A DNA stretch of 64,000 bases, from the NCBI GenBank assembly GCA_964601305.1, contig CAZRMW010000001.1:135450-199449 (forward strand), read 5' to 3'. Source of the DNA: an uncultured Candidatus Saccharibacteria bacterium. Lineage in GTDB: Bacteria; Patescibacteriota; Minisyncoccia; JAHISW01; Tagabacteraceae. The notes below the pieces were generated by a model, which worked only from the letters and a program-made list of their open reading frames with translations, was not told the origin of the DNA and searched no databases. A program made the translations under genes and the position numbers. Below are positions 19,779-41,149 of the stretch, piece after piece (the first letter of the stretch is position 1; each line of letters starts with the position of its first letter).

Positions 19779-22415
19779 CTATGAGCACAAACCCCACCCA
19801 CAAGCTGGGCAAGACAAACAACCTTCTTTGAAAGAAACCTCTACTTCACAATTTGGACAGTGAGTAACTTTTTTACCAAAGTCTTTTACCTCTTCCTCCC
19901 CACCAGCTTCTCCATTTACATATGGCGCCGAAGGGTCTCTATAAACTGCTAGCCCTTCTGCTTTTTCATCTTTAATCCTTTTTAGCGATTCAAGATCAAC
20001 CTCCTCTTTCTTTTTCTTTTCTCTTTTTTTGTTTGTAGAAGAAAGAACCTGGTCTTTTATAGAGCCATCTCTGTACACTGTTGTACCCTTACATCCAAGT
20101 TCATAAGCCAACATATAAACTTTTTTCATATCGGCTATCGTTGCATCTTTTGGAAAATTAATAGTTTTTGAAATAGAAGAATCTACCCATTTCTGAAAAG
20201 ATGCCAAACTTCTAACATGATCTTCTGGTTTAATATCGTGGCTTACTACAAAAACTTTTTTTAAAGCTGGCGGAATGTAGTTTATTTTCTGAGAAGAGCC
20301 TCCATGATTTAAAACATCCGTAACCAAGCTGTCATCAAATAACTCTTCTGCGAGCATAGCTCTCTCAAAAACAGAGTCTATATAATAAAACTTTCCGACA
20401 GCCACATTTTTTTGAAACACCAAAGAATACACAGGCTCTATTCCTGAAGAACATCCTGCAATCATAGAAATAGAGCCAGTCGGAGCAATTACTGTGGTAT
20501 AGCTATTTCTAATGCCATTTTTTTTGATATCTTTTGCAAGTTTTTTCCAGTCGAGGTTCCAACTACTCTTGTTATAAAAACCAGCAAAAGGCATTTTGCC
20601 CTCTGCATAAGAACTATTCTTAAATAAGGGGAAAACTCCCCGACTTTTCGCCATATTCATAGATTCTGCCTTAGAATAATAGTTTATAAATTCTGCAATT
20701 TTTTCCATTAAATCTCTACCTTTTTTAGAATTGTAAGGAATTCTAAGCTCAAAAAGCAAATCACCAAGCCCCATTATTCCGAGACCGATTTTTCTTGTTT
20801 TTAAAGTCATTTCCTCTATCTCGGCCATAGGAAAAGCATTTATATCTATAATATTGTCTAAAAATCGCACTGCAGAACGCACAGCTTCTTCCAGTTTATC
20901 CCAGTCTATAGATTTCTTTTTTCGATTGTTTATTTTTACAAAACGCCATAAGTTTATTGAACCTAAGTTGCAAGATTCGTCTGGGTAAAGAAGTAATTCG
21001 CCGCATGGATTTGTGGTAACAATATCGCCCAACTCTTTTGCAAGAGGGTTGTGTTCGTTTATTCTGTCATGAAAAAGCACGCCAGGCTCTGCAGACTCCC
21101 ATGCCTGATAAACAATACTTTCAAACAATATTTTTGAAGAAATTGTTCCCAAAATTTTTCCGTCTCTAGGGTTTTTTAGTGGGTAAGGCTTTCCTTTTTT
21201 GTAGTAATCCCAAAAATCTCCCATCATTAGTACAGAAATATTAAAATTCTTTAACGCTTTGTTGCCATCTTTTGCTACAACAAATTTTTCAATATCTGGA
21301 TGATTGCTATTCATAATACCCATATTAGCGCCTCTGCGTATTCCCCCTTGCTTTACAACTTCTGTCATAGTATCGAAAAGCTTCATAAAACTAAGCGGAC
21401 CAGAAGATGTACCTCCAGTTTTTTTAATAAAATCTCCCTCCGGACGAAGTTTTGAAAAATTATATCCCAACCCACCGCCAGATTTAAAAATAAGAGCTGC
21501 TTTTCTTAAAGTATCCATTATAGAATCCATTGAATCGTCAATATCTAAAGCAAAACAAGCAGAGCCCATACCCAAGTAGCTACCAAAATTTGCTAGAGTT
21601 GGTGTATTTGGCATAAAACTTCTAGAAACCATTAGGTTATAAAAATTATCTATTTCTTTTTGGTGCTCATCAAACTTTCCCTTCTTTAACATAGAGACAA
21701 GTTTATCCCATTTTATTTTTATTTTCCCATTAGACTCAAGCCTTTTAAAAGTATGGTGCAAAGCTTTTATATGAAATCTATTTAAAGTGTACTCTCCTAT
21801 TTTGATCTTTCCCTCTAACACGATGGCCTTTTTGTTGCTCAAGGTAAGTTTTTCTTCGCTTGGAACAGTATCTTTTTTAACTTTCTTATAACTAACTCTT
21901 TTGTCGTACAAAATATCTGGTAAAGCAGTATGTATTGCTACTCTTAAAAAAAGTTCTCTAGGTGTTTCTTCTATCTTTCCTTCGTCGTTTTTGTTTAAAT
22001 ACCTACTTTTTAAAACCTTAAGCGCGTTTGAATCAAAAGCTTTGTCTACATCATCTATTTCCTTCTTGTTTAAAATTTCTTGTTTTTCTTTTCTAATCTC
22101 AGATCTTTTTTGCCTGTACAATATATAAGTCTTTGCAACCTTAGCAAATCCTTTATCCACCAAAGACTGTTCTACCATATCTTGAACTTCTTCAATGGTT
22201 GGCACAGCCTTTGAAAAATTTTTCTTATGCTTGGCAAAAATTTTTTCAAGCACCGATACTGTAACTTCTTCCGCAAGTTTTTTTTCAGGCTTTCCGCACA
22301 CCTCAAGTGCCTTAAAAACCGCCTCTGTAATGCGGTTTTTGTCAAAATCTTCTATTCTCCCACCTCTTTTTTTAATCTTTTTGGGAGTCTTTAATTGGGA
22401 ATTTTTTCCTCTCAT
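19779..22415 (-). CDS. nrdJ: Adenosylcobalamin-dependent ribonucleotide reductase (class II) with N-terminal ATP-cone and C-terminal zinc ribbon
   Basis: ATP-cone RGGRIEDFDKNRITEAV, active-site TNPCGE, C-terminal CPNCEVEV...CLSCPACG. Confidence 0.85.
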   Translation of the reverse strand: MRGKNSQLKTPKKIKKRGGRIEDFDKNRITEAVFKALEVCGKPEKKLAEEVTVSVLEKIFAKHKKNFSKAVPTIEEVQDMVEQSLVDKGFAKVAKTYILYRQKRSEIRKEKQEILNKKEIDDVDKAFDSNALKVLKSRYLNKNDEGKIEETPRELFLRVAIHTALPDILYDKRVSYKKVKKDTVPSEEKLTLSNKKAIVLEGKIKIGEYTLNRFHIKALHHTFKRLESNGKIKIKWDKLVSMLKKGKFDEHQKEIDNFYNLMVSRSFMPNTPTLANFGSYLGMGSACFALDIDDSMDSIMDTLRKAALIFKSGGGLGYNFSKLRPEGDFIKKTGGTSSGPLSFMKLFDTMTEVVKQGGIRRGANMGIMNSNHPDIEKFVVAKDGNKALKNFNISVLMMGDFWDYYKKGKPYPLKNPRDGKILGTISSKILFESIVYQAWESAEPGVLFHDRINEHNPLAKELGDIVTTNPCGELLLYPDESCNLGSINLWRFVKINNRKKKSIDWDKLEEAVRSAVRFLDNIIDINAFPMAEIEEMTLKTRKIGLGIMGLGDLLFELRIPYNSKKGRDLMEKIAEFINYYSKAESMNMAKSRGVFPLFKNSSYAEGKMPFAGFYNKSSWNLDWKKLAKDIKKNGIRNSYTTVIAPTGSISMIAGCSSGIEPVYSLVFQKNVAVGKFYYIDSVFERAMLAEELFDDSLVTDVLNHGGSSQKINYIPPALKKVFVVSHDIKPEDHVRSLASFQKWVDSSISKTINFPKDATIADMKKVYMLAYELGCKGTTVYRDGSIKDQVLSSTNKKREKKKKEEVDLESLKRIKDEKAEGLAVYRDPSAPYVNGEAGGEEEVKDFGKKVTHCPNCEVEVSFKEGCLSCPACGWGLCS

Positions 22416-22453: not shown

Positions 22454-22484
22454 TGTGGATAACCCAGTCATCCGACCGGATAAA
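22454..22484 (-). promoter_or_regulatory. Two DnaA-box-like motifs (TTATCCACA perfect; TTATCCGG) abutting a putative TTGGTG-N17-TACAAT promoter of nrdJ
   Basis: The plus strand shows TGTGGATAA (22454-22462) and CCGGATAAA (22476-22484). The -10 TACAAT ends 7 nt before the ATG, which suggests a leaderless mRNA. Confidence 0.45.
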
Positions 22485-27289: not shown

Positions 27290-27310
27290 TCTTGCCCCGC
27301 TCGGCGGGGT
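27290..27310. repeat. GC-rich hairpin CTTGCCCCGCTCGGCGGGG (plus adjacent TTTGTTAAGGTTCA) between groEL and the next gene
   Basis: Reverse complement identical to 40571..40590. Confidence 0.6.
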
Positions 27311-27333
27311 TTGTTAAGGTTCAAGCCTAATTT

Positions 27334-29233
<1,900 letters not shown>

Positions 29234-29652: not shown

Positions 29653-30159
29653 TTAAAATTCTGGAAAAATCACAATATCTTTATTTAATGAATTCCCAAG
29701 CCTAGCTTCAATATAATTTTTAAGAAGATTCATTTCACTAAGAGTATTCTTGTTCATTGTCTTTCGACAACATTTAGTTAAAATTGTTACAAAAATCCAT
29801 TCAATTTCTTCTTTTTTGATATCTTTTCTTAATAAATAAGCTGGTATTAAAGGGTATTTTTTAATATGCTTAACAAGTTCTGTCATTCTTGATTTTTCTT
29901 GAAGATGAACAACCCCTCTCCCATTCGTTTGTGGAAAAAATTCAAGAAAAAGATCTATGCCGGTTTTATCCTTTTCTCCGTGCATTTTTGAAAAAAAATA
30001 AGACATTAACCATCTTTTCTCAATAAATTCATCAAGAGTAGTGTTTCTTAAGCTTCTTACAGCAAGAGTTTCTTCAGAAGGTTTTTGTATCTTTTTACTA
30101 GACCTCTTTTTCTTTCTAGGAACGACCTTATGATACGCCCGCCTTAGTGATTCGGACAA
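29653..30159 (-). CDS. Hypothetical basic protein (TTG start after AGAGGAGG SD)
   Basis: 168 aa ORF. Confidence 0.45.
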   Translation of the reverse strand: MSESLRRAYHKVVPRKKKRSSKKIQKPSEETLAVRSLRNTTLDEFIEKRWLMSYFFSKMHGEKDKTGIDLFLEFFPQTNGRGVVHLQEKSRMTELVKHIKKYPLIPAYLLRKDIKKEEIEWIFVTILTKCCRKTMNKNTLSEMNLLKNYIEARLGNSLNKDIVIFPEF

Positions 30160-30197
30160 AATTGCCTCCTCTTGTTTTGATTGTCAACTTGTCCCGC

Positions 30198-30222
30198 TCG
30201 GCGGGATTTATAGATTTATATT
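30198..30222. repeat. GC-hairpin family member with compensatory stem change (TCCCGC-TCG-GCGGGA)
   Basis: C to T and G to A changes preserve base pairing. Confidence 0.55.
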
Positions 30223-30260
30223 TAAAGTACAATTATTTCTACAATAAATCAAGGACAGCA

Positions 30261-30294
30261 AATAAAAAAACGGGGTAGCACATAGTACTACCCC
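30261..30294 (-). terminator. Rho-independent terminator (minus strand)
   Basis: GGGGTAG-loop-CTACCCC followed by U7 on the minus strand. Confidence 0.65.
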
Positions 30295-30296
30295 AT

Positions 30297-30905
30297 ACAA
30301 CAAAGAACATTAACTTAGATTTTAGCCTTAGGTGAGTTGGTTACAGATACTTTGTACCCTAGAGTACATTTCTCCTTAGCCTAACGGTAAGACCGTCGAT
30401 TGAATTACCGCTCTGAACATCACCCAGATTCCTACCTTTTTCAAGATAGTACTTGGAATATTCGTCCAGGAAGATTTAGGTCACCCTAAATTTTGTAACT
30501 CCCCGAGAGATCTGCTAATCTCTCCAACGAATCTCCGCAACCCTCCACAAGCAACGCTAGCAGGCTTTAACGCACGTGAAGTTTGGGCTATTCCGGGTAT
30601 ACCGGTTACCGGAATCACTCTTTGTTTTCTTGCTAAGTTAATGACCTTTTTTAACTGTTCTTAATACAGTATATAAAAATAAATTCTCAAGTCAAGCGTT
30701 TGTTTATCCCCAACAGACTAGAGGTATGCACCTGTCCAGCCTGCCGGTAAGTATGACTCGGTAGACAAAAAATACCAAACTTACAACTTCGAAGTGAAAA
30801 CAGTGGAGGTGTGGACAAGCCTTGACGACAGAATAGTAAATATGATATATATTTAAGATATTAACACCACTGCCCCTGCTCCTTGGAGTAAGGGCAGTTT
30901 GTTGT
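30297..30905 (-). ncRNA. Candidate structured non-coding RNA of about 600 nt (identity unknown; strand uncertain)
   Basis: About 770 bp without an ORF and with locally elevated GC. Many stem-loops. A minus-strand terminator at the 3' side, a weak TTGAAT-N15-TATAAC promoter near 30900, and a plus-strand hairpin plus T-run at 30868-30905. Confidence 0.3.
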
Positions 30906-30932
30906 TATAGTTAAACGTATTCAAATTCAAAT

Positions 30933-31493
30933 ATGCTATTTAAATCTCCGAAAAAAGAACGAGTGGCGATATATATTGATGGTAATAATTTTTATAATCG
31001 CTTAAAAGAACCTGAAATTAATTTTCCAAAAGGTGTTAATTTTAATTATTCAGAATTTATAAATTTTTTGTTGGGAGACAGAGAATTAATTTCAAAAAGA
31101 TATTATATTGGTATAGTAAAAAATTTTGATGGAAAAGAAAAAAGCAAGAAAATGGTTTCAAGTCAGCAAAAATTTCTATCTGAATTAGAAAATCAGGGGT
31201 TTAGTATTAAAAGAGGTAAAATTATTTATGACAACGGGAAGCCAAGAGAAAAAGGCGTTGATGTTAAAATAGCCATAGATTTGATTACGGGAGCAATTGA
31301 TGATTTATATGATACAGCTATTTTAATAAGTTCTGATACAGATTTAATACCAGCGATCAAATATATTAAATTTAAAGACAAAAAACTTGAATATGTTGGA
31401 TTTTCTCACAACCCATCCTTTGGGATGATAAAATGGTCAACCACAAGAAGACTTCTTCTACCTGAAGATATAAACAGATTTAAGCAATTTTGA
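30933..31493 (+). CDS. NYN-domain (LabA-like) protein
   Basis: VAIYIDGNNFYNRL...GVDVKIAIDLI...AILISSDTDLIPAI. Confidence 0.7.
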   Translation: MLFKSPKKERVAIYIDGNNFYNRLKEPEINFPKGVNFNYSEFINFLLGDRELISKRYYIGIVKNFDGKEKSKKMVSSQQKFLSELENQGFSIKRGKIIYDNGKPREKGVDVKIAIDLITGAIDDLYDTAILISSDTDLIPAIKYIKFKDKKLEYVGFSHNPSFGMIKWSTTRRLLLPEDINRFKQF

Positions 31494-31567
31494 ATTCTTC
31501 TGATTGGTAGTATTGACTTAAAAAGTACTTGCAATATACTGTAGATATCGTTTAATACTCATTATAT

Positions 31568-33580: not shown

Positions 33581-34284
33581 AGGCACTTGTTAAAGACATC
33601 GAAAACACTCCTCGAAAACTAGAAGGTCTAAAAGATGTATTAAAAACTCCAAAAATCGCCGACCAAAATCCTCAAAAAATTGTATATGACGTCTATAGAG
33701 AAGTAGATCTGGTAAACACTTTGAGATACGATATCACTATTATGCACCCAGAAATGCTAGGTAGTGAATTTTGCAAAACATACGGACACTCTCATGAATA
33801 CTTAGAGGTAATGGAGGTGCTAGAAGGAAAAGCTCTGTGGTTACTTCAGAAACACGACCAGAATAACCCAGAAATCATAAAAGAAGTCTATTTGGTTTCT
33901 GCAAACAAAGGAGAAAAAGCTATTATTCCCAGCGACTTTGGATCAATAAGCATAAACCCAACAAAAGAAAAGGCCGTGCTTTCAAACTGGATGTGTACAG
34001 AGTCTATAAGTAGCTACGAATTAAACAAAAAATTTCAGGGTATGTGCTATTACATTTTAAAAAACAAAAACGGAGAAATAATTTATGAAAAAAATCCAAA
34101 TTACAAAGAAGTTCCTAGTTTAATTGAGTTAAAGCCAAAAGAACTACCAGAATACGGAATCACTTTCGACAAACCCCTACTCTCTTTAAAAGAAACTCCT
34201 GAAAAATTGGAATTTCTTAAAGACCCCGAAAAATATAAAAACATTCTTACAATCGATAAATGTTATGAAGAAACAAGAAAATAA
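33538..34284 (+). CDS. Hypothetical protein, possible cupin-fold (GHSHEY motif)
   Basis: KTYGHSHEYLEVMEVLEG is cupin-like. Weak. Confidence 0.3.
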   Translation: MAHKNQKSMENISIEALVKDIENTPRKLEGLKDVLKTPKIADQNPQKIVYDVYREVDLVNTLRYDITIMHPEMLGSEFCKTYGHSHEYLEVMEVLEGKALWLLQKHDQNNPEIIKEVYLVSANKGEKAIIPSDFGSISINPTKEKAVLSNWMCTESISSYELNKKFQGMCYYILKNKNGEIIYEKNPNYKEVPSLIELKPKELPEYGITFDKPLLSLKETPEKLEFLKDPEKYKNILTIDKCYEETRK

Positions 34285-34780
34285 TTACGCTTTTATAGAC
34301 AGCCAAAATGTTAATCTCGGTGTCCAAAGTCTTGGATGGAAATTGGATTTCAAAAAATTCCGAGCTTACTTAAAAGATAAATACAATATAAACAAAGCCT
34401 TTTTGTTTATTGGATATCTTCCAGGCAACGAACGACTGTACACCTTTTTACAAAAAGCTGGTTTTATCTGTGTTTTAAAACCAACCCTTGAACTACCTAA
34501 CGGTCGAGTAAAAGGAAATGTTGATGCTGAATTAGTTTTACACACAATGATTGAAATTAATAATTTTGACAAAGCAATAATTGTATCTGGAGACGGAGAT
34601 TTTTATTGTTTAGTTAAACACTTATTAAAAATTAGAAAATTTAAAAAAATGCTTATACCTAACCAAAAACGGTATTCCGGACTTCTTAAACAACTAAGTA
34701 CTCCAGATTATAATATTCTCGATTTTATGGATACATTACAGAAAAAACTTTTTTTCGAAAAAAGAAAAGAGCTCTCGTAG
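34265..34780 (+). CDS. NYN-domain (LabA-like) protein, second copy
   Basis: YAFIDSQNV...GNVDAELV...AIIVSGDGDF. Confidence 0.65.
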   Translation: MKKQENNYAFIDSQNVNLGVQSLGWKLDFKKFRAYLKDKYNINKAFLFIGYLPGNERLYTFLQKAGFICVLKPTLELPNGRVKGNVDAELVLHTMIEINNFDKAIIVSGDGDFYCLVKHLLKIRKFKKMLIPNQKRYSGLLKQLSTPDYNILDFMDTLQKKLFFEKRKELS

Positions 34781-38112: not shown

Positions 38113-38625
38113 CTATTTCATTTTTTCGTCCAAGGCTCCCATATAAACTTCTTTCTTTTTTTGTTTTGTTGAAAAAGATCCTTTTGGGCCTTGTGGCATT
38201 TCTGTCCAAGCCTCCACTACTACCGCCACATTTTTAAATTTCCAAACACCTGGTTTTATCCAGGCATTATGTCTTCTTATCCACCAACTCTTTACTTCAG
38301 TCATCCAACGTACTTCTTGAAAAGTTCGAATGTTGTCATTTTCCCAAAAAAGACGCCCAAGTAGTGCTTTATTGTGCGTTGGCAGATCCTTCGGGTCATT
38401 CCAATCAATGTATTCACGAAAATTTTCTCGTCTTTCTTTTTCGGCATAAAGAATTTCCAAATTTTCCCTAACAGCAGTTATGTAAGATCCTTCTGGAGGA
38501 TTGTCGGCATAACCAATTCCCTCTAAAGATCTCAGAGCATTTTCTTGTCTCTCTAAAAACCTCCCTAAATTAATATCCGAAATGCTTTTCAAATACCTAG
38601 CAAACGGATTTTCTGTTTTAATCAT
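38113..38625 (-). CDS. Hypothetical protein, paralog of 36918..37415
   Basis: See paralog. Confidence 0.5.
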   Translation of the reverse strand: MIKTENPFARYLKSISDINLGRFLERQENALRSLEGIGYADNPPEGSYITAVRENLEILYAEKERRENFREYIDWNDPKDLPTHNKALLGRLFWENDNIRTFQEVRWMTEVKSWWIRRHNAWIKPGVWKFKNVAVVVEAWTEMPQGPKGSFSTKQKKKEVYMGALDEKMK

Positions 38626-38987
38626 TTGTCCTCCTTAGGTTTTTTACCCCATACAACGTGGTGTTTATTGTCAAACAGAAGAATAATTATTTCATACCCT
38701 TGCTCTTTTAGCTTTTTAATTTCAGCACCGGGGTGAGCTTCAAAAAAAGTGGGATTATTTTTTATGAAAAAAAGTTCTTCATATCCCATTTCTTCTAATT
38801 CTTTGGAAGTATATTCTGAAATAACAATCTCTTCATCTAGCTCATAGTGTTCCCCGCATGTTTTACCAACAACAATCACTAAAAACAAAACCCCGATAAT
38901 TACTGCTAATACCGTTCCATCTATTCCCATATTTTGCCTCCTATTTTCTACCTCCAAACTACCAAAAACAGCCTCAAAAAGCAACAA
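38622..38987 (-). CDS. Membrane-anchored hypothetical protein, paralog of 37575..37982
   Basis: 4-nt overlap with the downstream partner. TM segment. Confidence 0.45.
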   Translation of the reverse strand: MLLFEAVFGSLEVENRRQNMGIDGTVLAVIIGVLFLVIVVGKTCGEHYELDEEIVISEYTSKELEEMGYEELFFIKNNPTFFEAHPGAEIKKLKEQGYEIIILLFDNKHHVVWGKKPKEDK

Positions 38988-39036: not shown

Positions 39037-39834
39037 TTATTTTCCTTCGTAATGCTCGAGTAAAAATTCTACTAAAATTTCACCTCCAAGTTGACCCTTG
39101 CTTCTTGCCCCGCCCGGCGGGGTTGGTTCTATAAAATACTCCGACTCTACTCTATCTTTGTTTACCGTTATACCCTTGCCCACTTGAAGCATTTCTGCAT
39201 CATTATAGTTGTTGCCCGTGGTCATAATTTGTTTTGGCTCTATGTTTAACTGCTTAGCTAAATTTTTTATTCCCATCCCTTTGTTTGTTTTTTTGCTTCC
39301 TATATCGTACCCTTCATTTGTCCAAAGACAGTAAAGCTCTCCTTCTCCAACCTCTTCCACCAATTTACAAATTTCTTCCATTTCATCACAATGAACCGTA
39401 AGCACAAAAAGTTTTGGTTCAAACCCTCTTATCCTGCTGTCCATCTTTTTCATTTCTTTTATTTTTTCTTTAAGAACTCTCAATTTATTAAAATATTCAT
39501 CGCTATAAACTTCGTGAGTAATTCTGTTATCAAGCCAAGTGATATTTCCATTCTCTGCTTGCAAAATCGTTTCTTTGTCAGAAAATCTATTTGTTAAACT
39601 TTTTAGATACAAAATATTTCTACCAGATGAAAAGTTTAAACGCACATATTTTTCTAGCTTGTTTAAATTTTCTACAAATTTATCTGAAAGCTGCTTAGAC
39701 TCCATAAAAAGCTTAGAGCCATCATCCTCCTCTCTAATTTCTGTACCAACAGGAGCTATCACTCCATCGATATCAAAAGTAACTACTTTTATATTGTCTA
39801 ATTCTTCTTTAGTTATTTCTTCTAGTTTTTTCAT
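39037..39834 (-). CDS. HAD-superfamily hydrolase (Cof/IIB-like)
   Basis: VVTFDIDGVI (DxD), TGNNYNDAEML (motif IV). The C-terminus carries an in-frame GC-rich repeat (PPGGARSKG). Confidence 0.7.
   Translation of the reverse strand: MKKLEEITKEELDNIKVVTFDIDGVIAPVGTEIREEDDGSKLFMESKQLSDKFVENLNKLEKYVRLNFSSGRNILYLKSLTNRFSDKETILQAENGNITWLDNRITHEVYSDEYFNKLRVLKEKIKEMKKMDSRIRGFEPKLFVLTVHCDEMEEICKLVEEVGEGELYCLWTNEGYDIGSKKTNKGMGIKNLAKQLNIEPKQIMTTGNNYNDAEMLQVGKGITVNKDRVESEYFIEPTPPGGARSKGQLGGEILVEFLLEHYEGK
39104..39125. repeat. GC-hairpin family member CTTGCCCCGCCCGGCGGGG inside the 3' end of the HAD CDS
   Basis: One loop substitution relative to 27290. Confidence 0.55.
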
Positions 39835-40008: not shown

Positions 40009-41103
40009 ATGAAAATCGGTATTGTAGGCCTACCAAACGTAGGCAAATCCACACTTTTTAAAGCACTAACAAAAATACAGGTAGATATAAACAACTACCC
40101 GTTTTGTACTATTGAACCAAATACAGGTATCGTTGAGGTGCCCGACGAAAGAATAGACAATCTTGCCAAACTTTCTAACTCCAAGAAAAAAATCTATGCC
40201 ACAATAGAGTTTGTAGACATTGCAGGAATTATAGAAGGAGCCAGCGAAGGTCAGGGACTTGGAAACAAATTTCTTCACAATATCCGCGAAGTAGATGCTA
40301 TAGCCCAAGTAGTGCGTGCTTTTAGAAATAAAAATATTACTCATGTACGAGACGAAGTAAATCCAGAAAAAGACATTGAAATTATAAACACCGAGCTTAT
40401 TTTGGCCGACATGGAAACAGTTTTAAAAAGAATTCCAAAACTAGAAAAAGAGGCCCGGGCACTAGATAAAACCGCTATCAAGCAATTAGAACTCGTCAAG
40501 CAACTCGAAAAAATATTAAACGAAAATAGTATGAAAAAAGTGAAAGAATTTATAAATTCTTTGGGAGAAGACCCCGCCGAGCGGGGCAAGCTTGAATTAA
40601 TTAAAGACCTTCACTTACTTTCTTTTAAACCAATCTTGTATGTAGTAAATGGGAGTAATTCGGGGGAAAAAATTGAAGGACTCGATAACAAAAACAGCCT
40701 CGTGCTAGATATAAAAACTGAGGAGGATTTGCTTGAATTATCAAACGAAGAACAACAAGAACTAGAATTAAAATCTCATCTATCAAAACTAATTACAAAA
40801 AGCTATGAGCTATTAGGGCTTATGACCTTTCTCACAACTGGAGAGGACGAGACGCGGGCATGGACCGTACCTATAAGCTCTGCGGCCCCGCGAGCTGGGC
40901 GCGCTATTCATGGAGATTTTGAAGAAAAATTTATCCGCGCTGATATCATCAACTACACCACTCTCCTCTCATCTGTGGGAAGCTCAACTTCCCACAGAGA
41001 TGATGTCAACCCTATGGCAAACGCCCGCGAAAAAGGCCTCATAAAAACCGTTGGTAAAGACTATATAGTCCAAAACGGCGACATAATAGAGTTTAGGATA
41101 TAA
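40009..41103 (+). CDS. ychF: Ribosome-binding ATPase YchF (Obg-like ATPase)
   Basis: MKIGIVGLPNVGKSTLF, TGS/C-terminal AWTV...IHGDFE...GKDYIVQNGD. Contains in-frame REP (SVGSSTSHR) and GC-hairpin (DPAERGK) segments. Confidence 0.9.
   Translation: MKIGIVGLPNVGKSTLFKALTKIQVDINNYPFCTIEPNTGIVEVPDERIDNLAKLSNSKKKIYATIEFVDIAGIIEGASEGQGLGNKFLHNIREVDAIAQVVRAFRNKNITHVRDEVNPEKDIEIINTELILADMETVLKRIPKLEKEARALDKTAIKQLELVKQLEKILNENSMKKVKEFINSLGEDPAERGKLELIKDLHLLSFKPILYVVNGSNSGEKIEGLDNKNSLVLDIKTEEDLLELSNEEQQELELKSHLSKLITKSYELLGLMTFLTTGEDETRAWTVPISSAAPRAGRAIHGDFEEKFIRADIINYTTLLSSVGSSTSHRDDVNPMANAREKGLIKTVGKDYIVQNGDIIEFRI
40571..40590. repeat. GC-rich hairpin repeat CCCCGCCGAGCGGGGCAAG (in-frame in ychF)
   Basis: Identical 19-mer to the reverse complement of 27290..27310. 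Confidence 0.6.
40972..40998. repeat. 27-bp REP palindrome TCTGTGGGAAGCTCAACTTCCCACAGA (in-frame in ychF)
   Basis: One mismatch to the copies at 42160 and 42395. Confidence 0.7.
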
Positions 41104-41149
41104 AAACTGGTAAACAAAAACTTTGCTTACCAGTTTCAAACAACTCTTT

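Follow-up and report, generated by a model that had tools for sequence, protein, structure and literature searches.

A predicted hairpin RNA conserved upstream of an NYN-domain gene and a candidate orphan transcript in one non-coding gap of a Parcubacteria genome

The gap between SecG and groES

We studied the non-coding gap at positions 30160-30932 of a 64,000-nt stretch of DNA (the window, whose positions are used as coordinates throughout). The gap separates a small gene upstream of groES-groEL on the minus strand from a gene for an NYN-domain protein on the plus strand, and it holds a short promoter-hairpin unit linked to the NYN gene as well as a candidate minus-strand transcript of about 400 nt, here called the orphan unit. 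The host belongs to the Patescibacteria/Parcubacteria, as judged from the best protein matches of NYN and GroEL, which are annotated as Parcubacteria, Paceibacterota or Tagabacteria.

A preliminary description had interpreted the gap as one large structured non-coding RNA. As stated there, no open reading frame (ORF) of at least 60 codons is present in the gap on either strand, and when the window is covered greedily with ORFs of at least 60 amino acids no other internal stretch left uncovered is as long as its 773 nt; the second-longest, of 678 nt, has two tRNAs inside. The coding density is indeed high, but the same cover puts it at about 89% rather than the >90% given earlier. The elevated GC content was borne out. 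Averaging 0.346 over the window, it rises to 0.39 in the gap and to 0.43 in the core of the gap (30297-30636), and a value of at least 0.429 is reached by only 7.5% of the 340-nt windows. Two internal helices had been cited as examples; ACTGCCC...GGGCAGT is the plus-strand hairpin near the NYN gene, and CCGGTAACCGG corresponds to 30602-30612 read on the minus strand.

Both hairpins described near the ends of the gap are present, one on the minus strand with a 12-bp stem at 30296..30270 and a T7 tail, the other on the plus strand with a T-run at 30869-30905, and both (30296-30260 on the minus strand and 30869-30905 on the plus strand) have the features of predicted intrinsic terminators. Because they are located on opposite strands and in different units, the gap is not one 770-nt RNA. 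What remains of the earlier proposal is a lineage-specific, plausibly transcribed non-coding stretch of about 400 nt. We lean towards the view that the gap combines independent elements in a mosaic, at a hypervariable SecG/groES spot.

The position of the gap in a hypervariable insertion spot follows from a comparison of the window segment 29653-31567 with the loci of six relatives (L011, L012, L013, L143, L144 and L145). All six retain the order RNase J-GPI-SBP-SecG on one side and groES-groEL-LemA on the other, and the nearest relatives have a GroEL that is 76-80% identical (76-79% in the six). The SecG-groES interval in the six relatives contains 0-3 unrelated small genes, with neither the NYN gene nor the 400-nt unit, so that a segment of about 1.4 kb comprising NYN plus gap is missing from the syntenic position. 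The conserved block that flanks the interval consists of RNase J-GPI-SBP-SecG and groES-groEL-LemA-M48. In the window it also contains another NYN-domain gene (34265-34780, plus strand, 171 aa), which separates the GPI and RNase J genes, neighbours in the relatives, and has no hairpin unit; the otherwise conserved block thus contains two extra NYN genes here. A comparison of the same-species contig L020 with the window revealed a single strongly variable stretch, the groEL-groES spacer at 29099-29175 with about 25 differences in 77 nt, while the other 2.6 kb or so differed by a single base.

The NYN-linked promoter-hairpin unit

The unit at 30822-30911 on the plus strand precedes the gene for the NYN-domain (PF01936) protein, its partner, which is located just outside the gap at 30933-31493 and encodes 186 aa. 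The unit starts with a near-consensus promoter, P1 (30822-30853), which consists of TTGACG at 30822-30827 and TATATA/TATATT at 30846-30853 and which in most other NYN loci reads TTGACA-17-TATAAT. The hairpin RNA proper spans 30860-30905 and has a 9-nt 5' tail, a 12-bp stem at 30869-30898 in which a C/A mismatch is conserved, and a loop of 4 nt; the T-run that follows the stem is overlapped by an extended -10 element, TGtTATAGT (30903-30911), proposed to represent a second promoter, P2. Five aspartates of the NYN protein (D16, D110, D116, D135 and D137), acidic residues of the kind typical of NYN/PIN-like nucleases, are invariant in 20 orthologues, among which the mean column identity is about 76%, and the only solved relative of the family is the uncharacterised 2qip.

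This layout is also found before the NYN gene of about 30 other Parcubacteria lineages, whose NYN orthologues are 60-74% identical at the protein level and where the neighbouring genes differ from locus to locus. The order of elements is TTGACA-17-TATAAT, about 6 nt, the tail, the hairpin, a U-run, TGnTATAAT and, 5-10 nt further on, the ATG of the NYN gene; loci L004, L007, L009 and L010, for example, share the succession of promoter, tail, hairpin, T-run, TATAAT and ATG, as do the loci of NYN orthologues whose proteins are 60-71% identical. The conserved tail reads ACUAUGAKC, or AUUAACAYC in the group to which the window belongs, and the hairpin follows the consensus ACURCYYCUGY-loop-RCAAGGGYAGU, with the C/A mismatch conserved and a loop that is usually of the UUCG type.

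To examine covariation, as the preliminary description had proposed, we used an alignment of 34 distinct versions of the hairpin unit, including that of the window, and the result was clear for this hairpin. Standard pairs were found in 98.5% of the stem cells, changes on both sides had occurred at 7 of the 12 stem pairs (in 11 sequences, for example, A-U was replaced by G-C), and none of 500 shuffles attained any of the five hairpin measures. As a control, sliding the partner by 1-3 columns reduced the pairing to 36-56%. Where the stem departs from Watson-Crick pairs, the cells are nearly always G-U as read on the sense strand, which favours a structured RNA over a palindrome in the DNA. In six lineages the hairpin folded on its own.

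A covariance model built for the unit (R1) gave one strong match of 56-68 bits per NYN locus searched. Within the 64-kb window it matched only 30860-30904, with 47 bits, and it matched neither the second NYN paralogue at 34265-34780 nor the loci of relatives that have no NYN gene. More distant NYN homologues, with 31-38% identity, likewise have a hairpin and T-run at this position, but the stem sequence differs. The hairpin matches no family in Rfam, and a literature search found no description of it. Judged by its own promoter, its T-run and its conservation in unrelated contexts, it has the attributes expected of a free-standing small RNA. That 30822-30911 represents a conserved small RNA element tied to an NYN nuclease gene, apparently undescribed, is well supported by sequence comparison. 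We also considered whether the hairpin unit encodes a peptide of 10 codons, MITTPAFGQG, and rejected this because neither its ATG nor its stop is conserved and the substitutions compensate one another in the RNA.

In 26 of the 31 NYN loci, the ATG is preceded at a distance of 4-12 nt by the end of a TAnnnT hexamer, the commonest version of which is TATAAT. A TATAAT-type hexamer this close to the start codon suggests that the NYN orthologues are leaderless genes with a second promoter; the neighbouring 168-aa gene in the window, in contrast, has a strong AGGAGG. Examples of leaderless-looking NYN loci, in which no Shine-Dalgarno sequence is seen, include L108 (1978-1997), L117 (1965-1985) and L124 (1974-2003).

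Many of these loci also contain a DnaA-like box. The sequence TT(A/T)TCCACA was matched at 7 or more of its 9 positions in 15 of 33 NYN loci, compared with 3.1 expected from shuffles, and in most cases 8-10 nt separate it from the P1 -35 downstream (L004, L007 and L099-L137). The window has two such 9-mers, imperfect and inverted, beside both of its divergent promoters; these are TTGTCCACA (8/9) at 30810-30818 on the minus strand, just upstream of the P1 -35, and TTATCCCCA (8/9) at 30704-30712 on the plus strand, 8 nt upstream of the -35 of the orphan unit. The arrangement TCCACA-TTGAC was not found elsewhere in the window. Elsewhere, DnaA boxes with at most one mismatch are mildly enriched in the window (31 versus 18.8 expected), and a perfect box, TTATCCACA, is located at 22454-22462 on the minus strand, about 40 nt upstream of the gene for a class I ribonucleotide reductase (19779-22415, minus strand). 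The nrdAB genes of E. coli are regulated by DnaA, and DnaA boxes control both the nrdAB and the dnaA promoters of that bacterium.

The two 9-mers, the AT-rich tracts and the divergence of genes from the gap would also fit a chromosomal replication origin (oriC). The boxes number only two and are both imperfect, however, and the GC skew tracks gene orientation, being negative or near zero on both sides with no replichore switch; the absent switch and the box count effectively refute this reading. Furthermore, neither dnaA nor dnaN is found among the flanking genes scanned, and the six relatives do not have the NYN-plus-gap segment at this position.

The minus-strand orphan unit

The orphan unit (30260-30695) would be read on the minus strand. 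It is headed by a sigma-70-type promoter, TTGACT-16-TATACT, at 30668-30695, with 10 of 12 consensus matches, whose -35, -10 and flanks match the SecG promoter at 31513-31543 as an inverted repeat; the SecG promoter is conserved in the relatives. The body of the candidate RNA covers 30297-30661 and is outlined by a predicted structure and by tests that indicate non-coding sequence, with no family and no homologue. Its proposed 3' end is the intrinsic terminator at 30260-30296, in which 6 of the 12 base pairs are G-C, the loop is 3 nt long and the pairing probability in the ensemble is 0.96. The terminator is situated in a divergent intergenic region, and there is no minus-strand ORF upstream for it to serve. 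With the terminator included, the candidate transcript is about 400 nt in length.

In the predicted fold, an 11-bp stem closes the structure (30643-30633 paired with 30318-30308), 30542-30534 and 30347-30339 form a long-range helix, and there are four hairpins of 6-8 bp with 4-nt loops, two of which are GNRA loops (GUGA and GAAA); all of these elements receive support from the ensemble. The minimum free energy (MFE) of the 404-nt unit, terminator included, corresponds to a z-score of -3.7, and the 340-nt core gave -2.7 on the minus strand versus -1.1 on the plus strand; the genome's own 340-nt windows have a mean z of -0.7 with a standard deviation of 1.45.

We searched the 4227 Rfam families at the gathering score over the whole window, and at E-values of up to 10 on a segment of 1101 nt and on the 416-nt core. 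An Rfam search had been suggested in the preliminary description, and it identified no RNA family in the gap. At gathering thresholds only three tRNAs were reported for the window, and ARAGORN found the same number and no transfer-messenger RNA (tmRNA). The permissive searches of the 1101-nt and 416-nt segments yielded noise driven by the terminator; the top matches, to the L20 leader (24.6 bits where 58.7 are required) and to sbrA, mainly aligned the terminator. No match to RNase P (RF00010/RF00011), tmRNA, the signal recognition particle (SRP) RNA or 6S RNA was obtained at E-values of up to 10; the list for the 416-nt segment reached down to 13.6 bits, so that the RNase P negative applies above about 13 bits. 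The P4 signatures of RNase P, CR-I GAGGAAAGUCC and CR-IV ACAGAAnnnGGCUUA, were absent even with 3 substitutions allowed, where only unrelated strings appeared, GGAAAGUC, from the same motif search, was not found within 1 mismatch, and the T-arm motif of tmRNA, GGUUCGAnUCC, was not found within 2 mismatches. These results agree with the failure to see RNase P, tmRNA or SRP motifs by eye. No cis-regulatory family, riboswitch or attenuator, reached its gathering score in the 400-nt unit.

Evidence for a protein was equally sought. Six-frame translations of the orphan unit matched no Pfam and no PHROG family. One frame has only 2 stops in 110 codons (TGA is read as a stop in this genome), but its open part of 59 codons had no match among 1.84 billion representative proteins. 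The codon-usage score of the orphan frame is 0.016; real genes of the window score 0.333 +/- 0.122, and wrong frames -0.146 +/- 0.158. A tblastn search with the small proteins found at the same position in the relatives matched only the real 168-aa gene. A pseudogene was rejected on the negative outcome of these translated searches and on the codon score, which is not gene-like. The preliminary description had named two outcomes that would speak against a large RNA, a lack of both transcription and conservation in relatives, and a degraded pseudogene; the lack of conservation is what we observed for the 400-nt unit in the relatives compared, whereas no protein similarity that would indicate a pseudogene was detected in these searches.

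The search for related DNA included nhmmer runs with the orphan unit against every fetched locus, the 45 NYN loci among them, and no homologue was found. Thirteen same-species contigs are identical across the gap except for one single-nucleotide polymorphism at 30505, so that population variation is uninformative here. A phage or plasmid origin was considered and set aside, as blastn against phage and plasmid collections gave no match to the orphan unit and exact-pattern scans of viral contigs returned chance matches only. An inverted repeat of 20 nt, 85% complementary, flanks the unit (30299-30318 with 30633-30652), but a miniature inverted-repeat transposable element was rejected, as the sequence is single-copy in the window, has no second copy in any fetched locus and has no flanking target-site duplication. 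The minus-strand terminator was also tried as a degenerate copy of the NYN unit (GTACTATG..CTACCCC); the local alignment score of 22 does not exceed that of many random positions in the window, and the model score was 10 bits.

Under the interpretation that we prefer, the SecG-like promoter and the strong terminator would bracket about 400 nt of non-coding, moderately GC-rich and moderately structured sequence, most likely a species-specific non-coding transcript on recently acquired accessory DNA. We give a discrete transcript somewhat better than an even chance on these sequence features, whereas a functional structured RNA appears doubtful.

A less probable reading, which nevertheless deserves serious weight, is that 30260-30700 is non-functional debris, namely a decayed foreign or accessory gene or a mobile element that arrived with or beside the NYN gene. 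Its former terminator would have persisted, and the promoter-like site would be a leftover or there by chance. Such an origin would account for the location in an insertion hotspot and the absence from the six relatives, for the lack of an RNA homologue in the nhmmer searches of the fetched loci, for a GC content unlike that of typical intergenic DNA, for the nearly open frame, for the flanking inverted repeat and for the unexceptional folding z-score. It is at odds with the absence of protein similarity in any frame, with a codon-usage score that is not gene-like, with the single copy in 64 kb without target-site duplication, and with a near-consensus promoter that matches a conserved functional one, that of SecG. 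The sequence is also 100% identical across samples from several sites, though the flanking genes are equally invariant.

Two further explanations would give the unit a known role. As a long regulatory 5' leader (attenuator) of the operon formed by the small gene, groES and groEL, it would lie on the expected strand directly upstream, with the terminator about 100 nt before the first gene. We nevertheless regard this as improbable, since the operon of the relatives has an upstream spacer of only 77-209 nt without such a leader, no alternative anti-terminator pairing is prominent in the ensemble, a promoter-like site (TTGTAG-18-TATAAA) lies between terminator and gene, and Rfam offers no leader or riboswitch match. 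More improbable still is a highly diverged RNase P RNA or other housekeeping RNA missed by the Rfam models. There is a precedent, since in 10 of 35 circularised genomes of the Candidate Phyla Radiation (CPR) RNase P RNA was found only with sub-threshold RF00010 scores (PMC8172020), and the size of about 400 nt, the promoter and terminator of its own, the long closing stem followed by a hairpin and the GNRA loops count in its favour. The topology, a predicted closing stem of 11-16 bp and then a hairpin, is generic. The covariance models are silent even on the 416 nt alone. The missing P4 signatures and the ARAGORN result point the same way, and a housekeeping RNA would be expected in relatives, but nothing similar occurs in any fetched locus.

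The remainder of the gap, 30160-30259, is accounted for by the 5' region of the small 168-aa gene (29653-30159, minus strand) that precedes groES-groEL. It contains the Shine-Dalgarno sequence AGGAGG (CCTCCT on the plus strand, 30165-30170) and a small GC-rich hairpin, TCCCGCTCGGCGGGA, at 30192-30206, one of four similar copies in the window. The 168-aa protein has only same-species copies among 5.8 billion proteins, and tblastn identified it as a fast-evolving homologue of a small gene upstream of groES in three relatives. The mini-hairpin, of the form CTTG(Y)CCCGCYCGGCGGG(R)TT and reading CCCCGCCGAGCGGGGCAAG on the minus strand, is found at 30188-30209, 27291-27312, 39104-39121 and 40573-40595. 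Two of the copies are situated directly upstream of ribosome-binding sites of minus-strand genes, the copy at 39104-39121 adjoins the minus-strand ORFs 38622-38987 and 39037-39834, and one is inside ORF 40009-41103; the four copies may represent a repeated regulatory or processing hairpin. The lowest folding z-score of the whole 340-nt scan, -5.9, was recorded for 40801-41140 on the plus strand (GC 0.456), a segment mostly within ORF 40009-41103 that contains one copy of the mini-hairpin.

Proposed working and relation to known systems

We propose that P1, usually preceded by the DnaA-box-like 9-mer, starts a transcript with the conserved 9-nt tail, which would form the 12-bp hairpin followed by a U-run. 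Most P1 transcripts would end at this U-run, yielding an RNA of 40-45 nt, and transcription of the NYN gene would start separately, at the extended -10 promoter P2, to give an mRNA that is leaderless or nearly so. With only about 9 nt before the stem, the unit would not accommodate an anti-terminator or a sensor. The strict linkage and the conservation of the stem beyond the needs of termination suggest that the NYN protein recognises the hairpin or is regulated by it; the hairpin would be a partner, regulator or recognition site for the nuclease or its expression.

Several observations weigh against this picture of the gap. Termination at the hairpin, the start site at P2 and the interaction with the NYN protein are all things that we infer from sequence. 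In the window, the P2-like -10 ends 21 nt before the ATG at 30933, outside the range of 4-12 nt, and the DnaA-like box is inverted relative to most other NYN loci. With regard to the orphan unit, a frequency of one terminator per 2 kb is also what shuffled sequence yields, and since no homologue was found the covariation comparison that succeeded for the NYN-linked hairpin has no counterpart. The region had been called stem-loop-rich, and the hairpins are real, but the folding is only weakly above chance, as the core z of -2.7 is equalled or undercut by 8% of the 340-nt windows. Since, in addition, the MFE and ensemble predictions conflict over the long-range helices, thermodynamics alone fails to set the orphan stretch apart from the rest of the genome.

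Promoter-proximal intrinsic terminators, short terminated small RNAs and attenuators are all known in bacteria. The NYN unit resembles them in its consensus promoter, its GC-rich stem with U-run, the gene immediately downstream and its conservation with compensatory changes. It differs from them in several ways. The 9 nt or so before the stem are too short for an anti-terminator, an aptamer or a leader peptide, and conservation of the stem (CCUG...CAAGGG, with the C/A mismatch) exceeds the requirements of termination. The gene downstream seems to be leaderless and to use a promoter of its own, and the unit matches no Rfam family. The orphan unit, for its part, is reminiscent of OLE, GOLLD, ROOL, HEARO and raiA, large bacterial RNAs in Rfam that lack ORFs and whose function is unknown, in being a GC-elevated, ORF-free segment of an AT-rich genome with promoter, terminator and GNRA hairpins. 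These large RNAs are defined by wide conservation and covariation, whereas the orphan unit matches none of them and has no detectable homologue.

The likeness to the diverged RNase P RNAs of the CPR consists of the same phylum-level group, a similar length, a closing stem and a known problem of detection at Rfam thresholds (PMC8172020). Unlike these RNAs, the orphan unit lacks the P4 signatures and even a sub-threshold covariance-model match. The 9-mer resembling TTATCCACA, at a fixed 8-10 nt upstream of the P1 -35 in many NYN loci, recalls promoters that are controlled by DnaA boxes, and the perfect box near the ribonucleotide reductase gene in the window is similar to the DnaA-controlled nrdAB. 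The putative boxes next to the gap's own promoters differ in being imperfect and inverted.

A bolder proposal, which we consider unlikely as a whole, is that the 40-45-nt hairpin RNA is a dedicated partner of the NYN protein (a substrate mimic, an inhibitor or an autoregulatory target) made from a promoter under the control of a DnaA box, and that a new structured RNA of about 400 nt was acquired at the same locus in this species. If this were true, the activity or expression of the NYN nuclease would be coupled to the replication state of the cell.

As the analysis illustrates, a long gap that is free of ORFs and elevated in GC does not have to represent a single RNA in a compact genome. The Patescibacteria (the Candidate Phyla Radiation) are uncultured, and RNA-based regulation in these bacteria is almost uncharted. 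A candidate RNA hairpin that is backed by covariation, absent from Rfam and linked to a nuclease which ranks among the best conserved of the uncharacterised nucleases in the Parcubacteria offers a concrete starting point towards the role of this nuclease.

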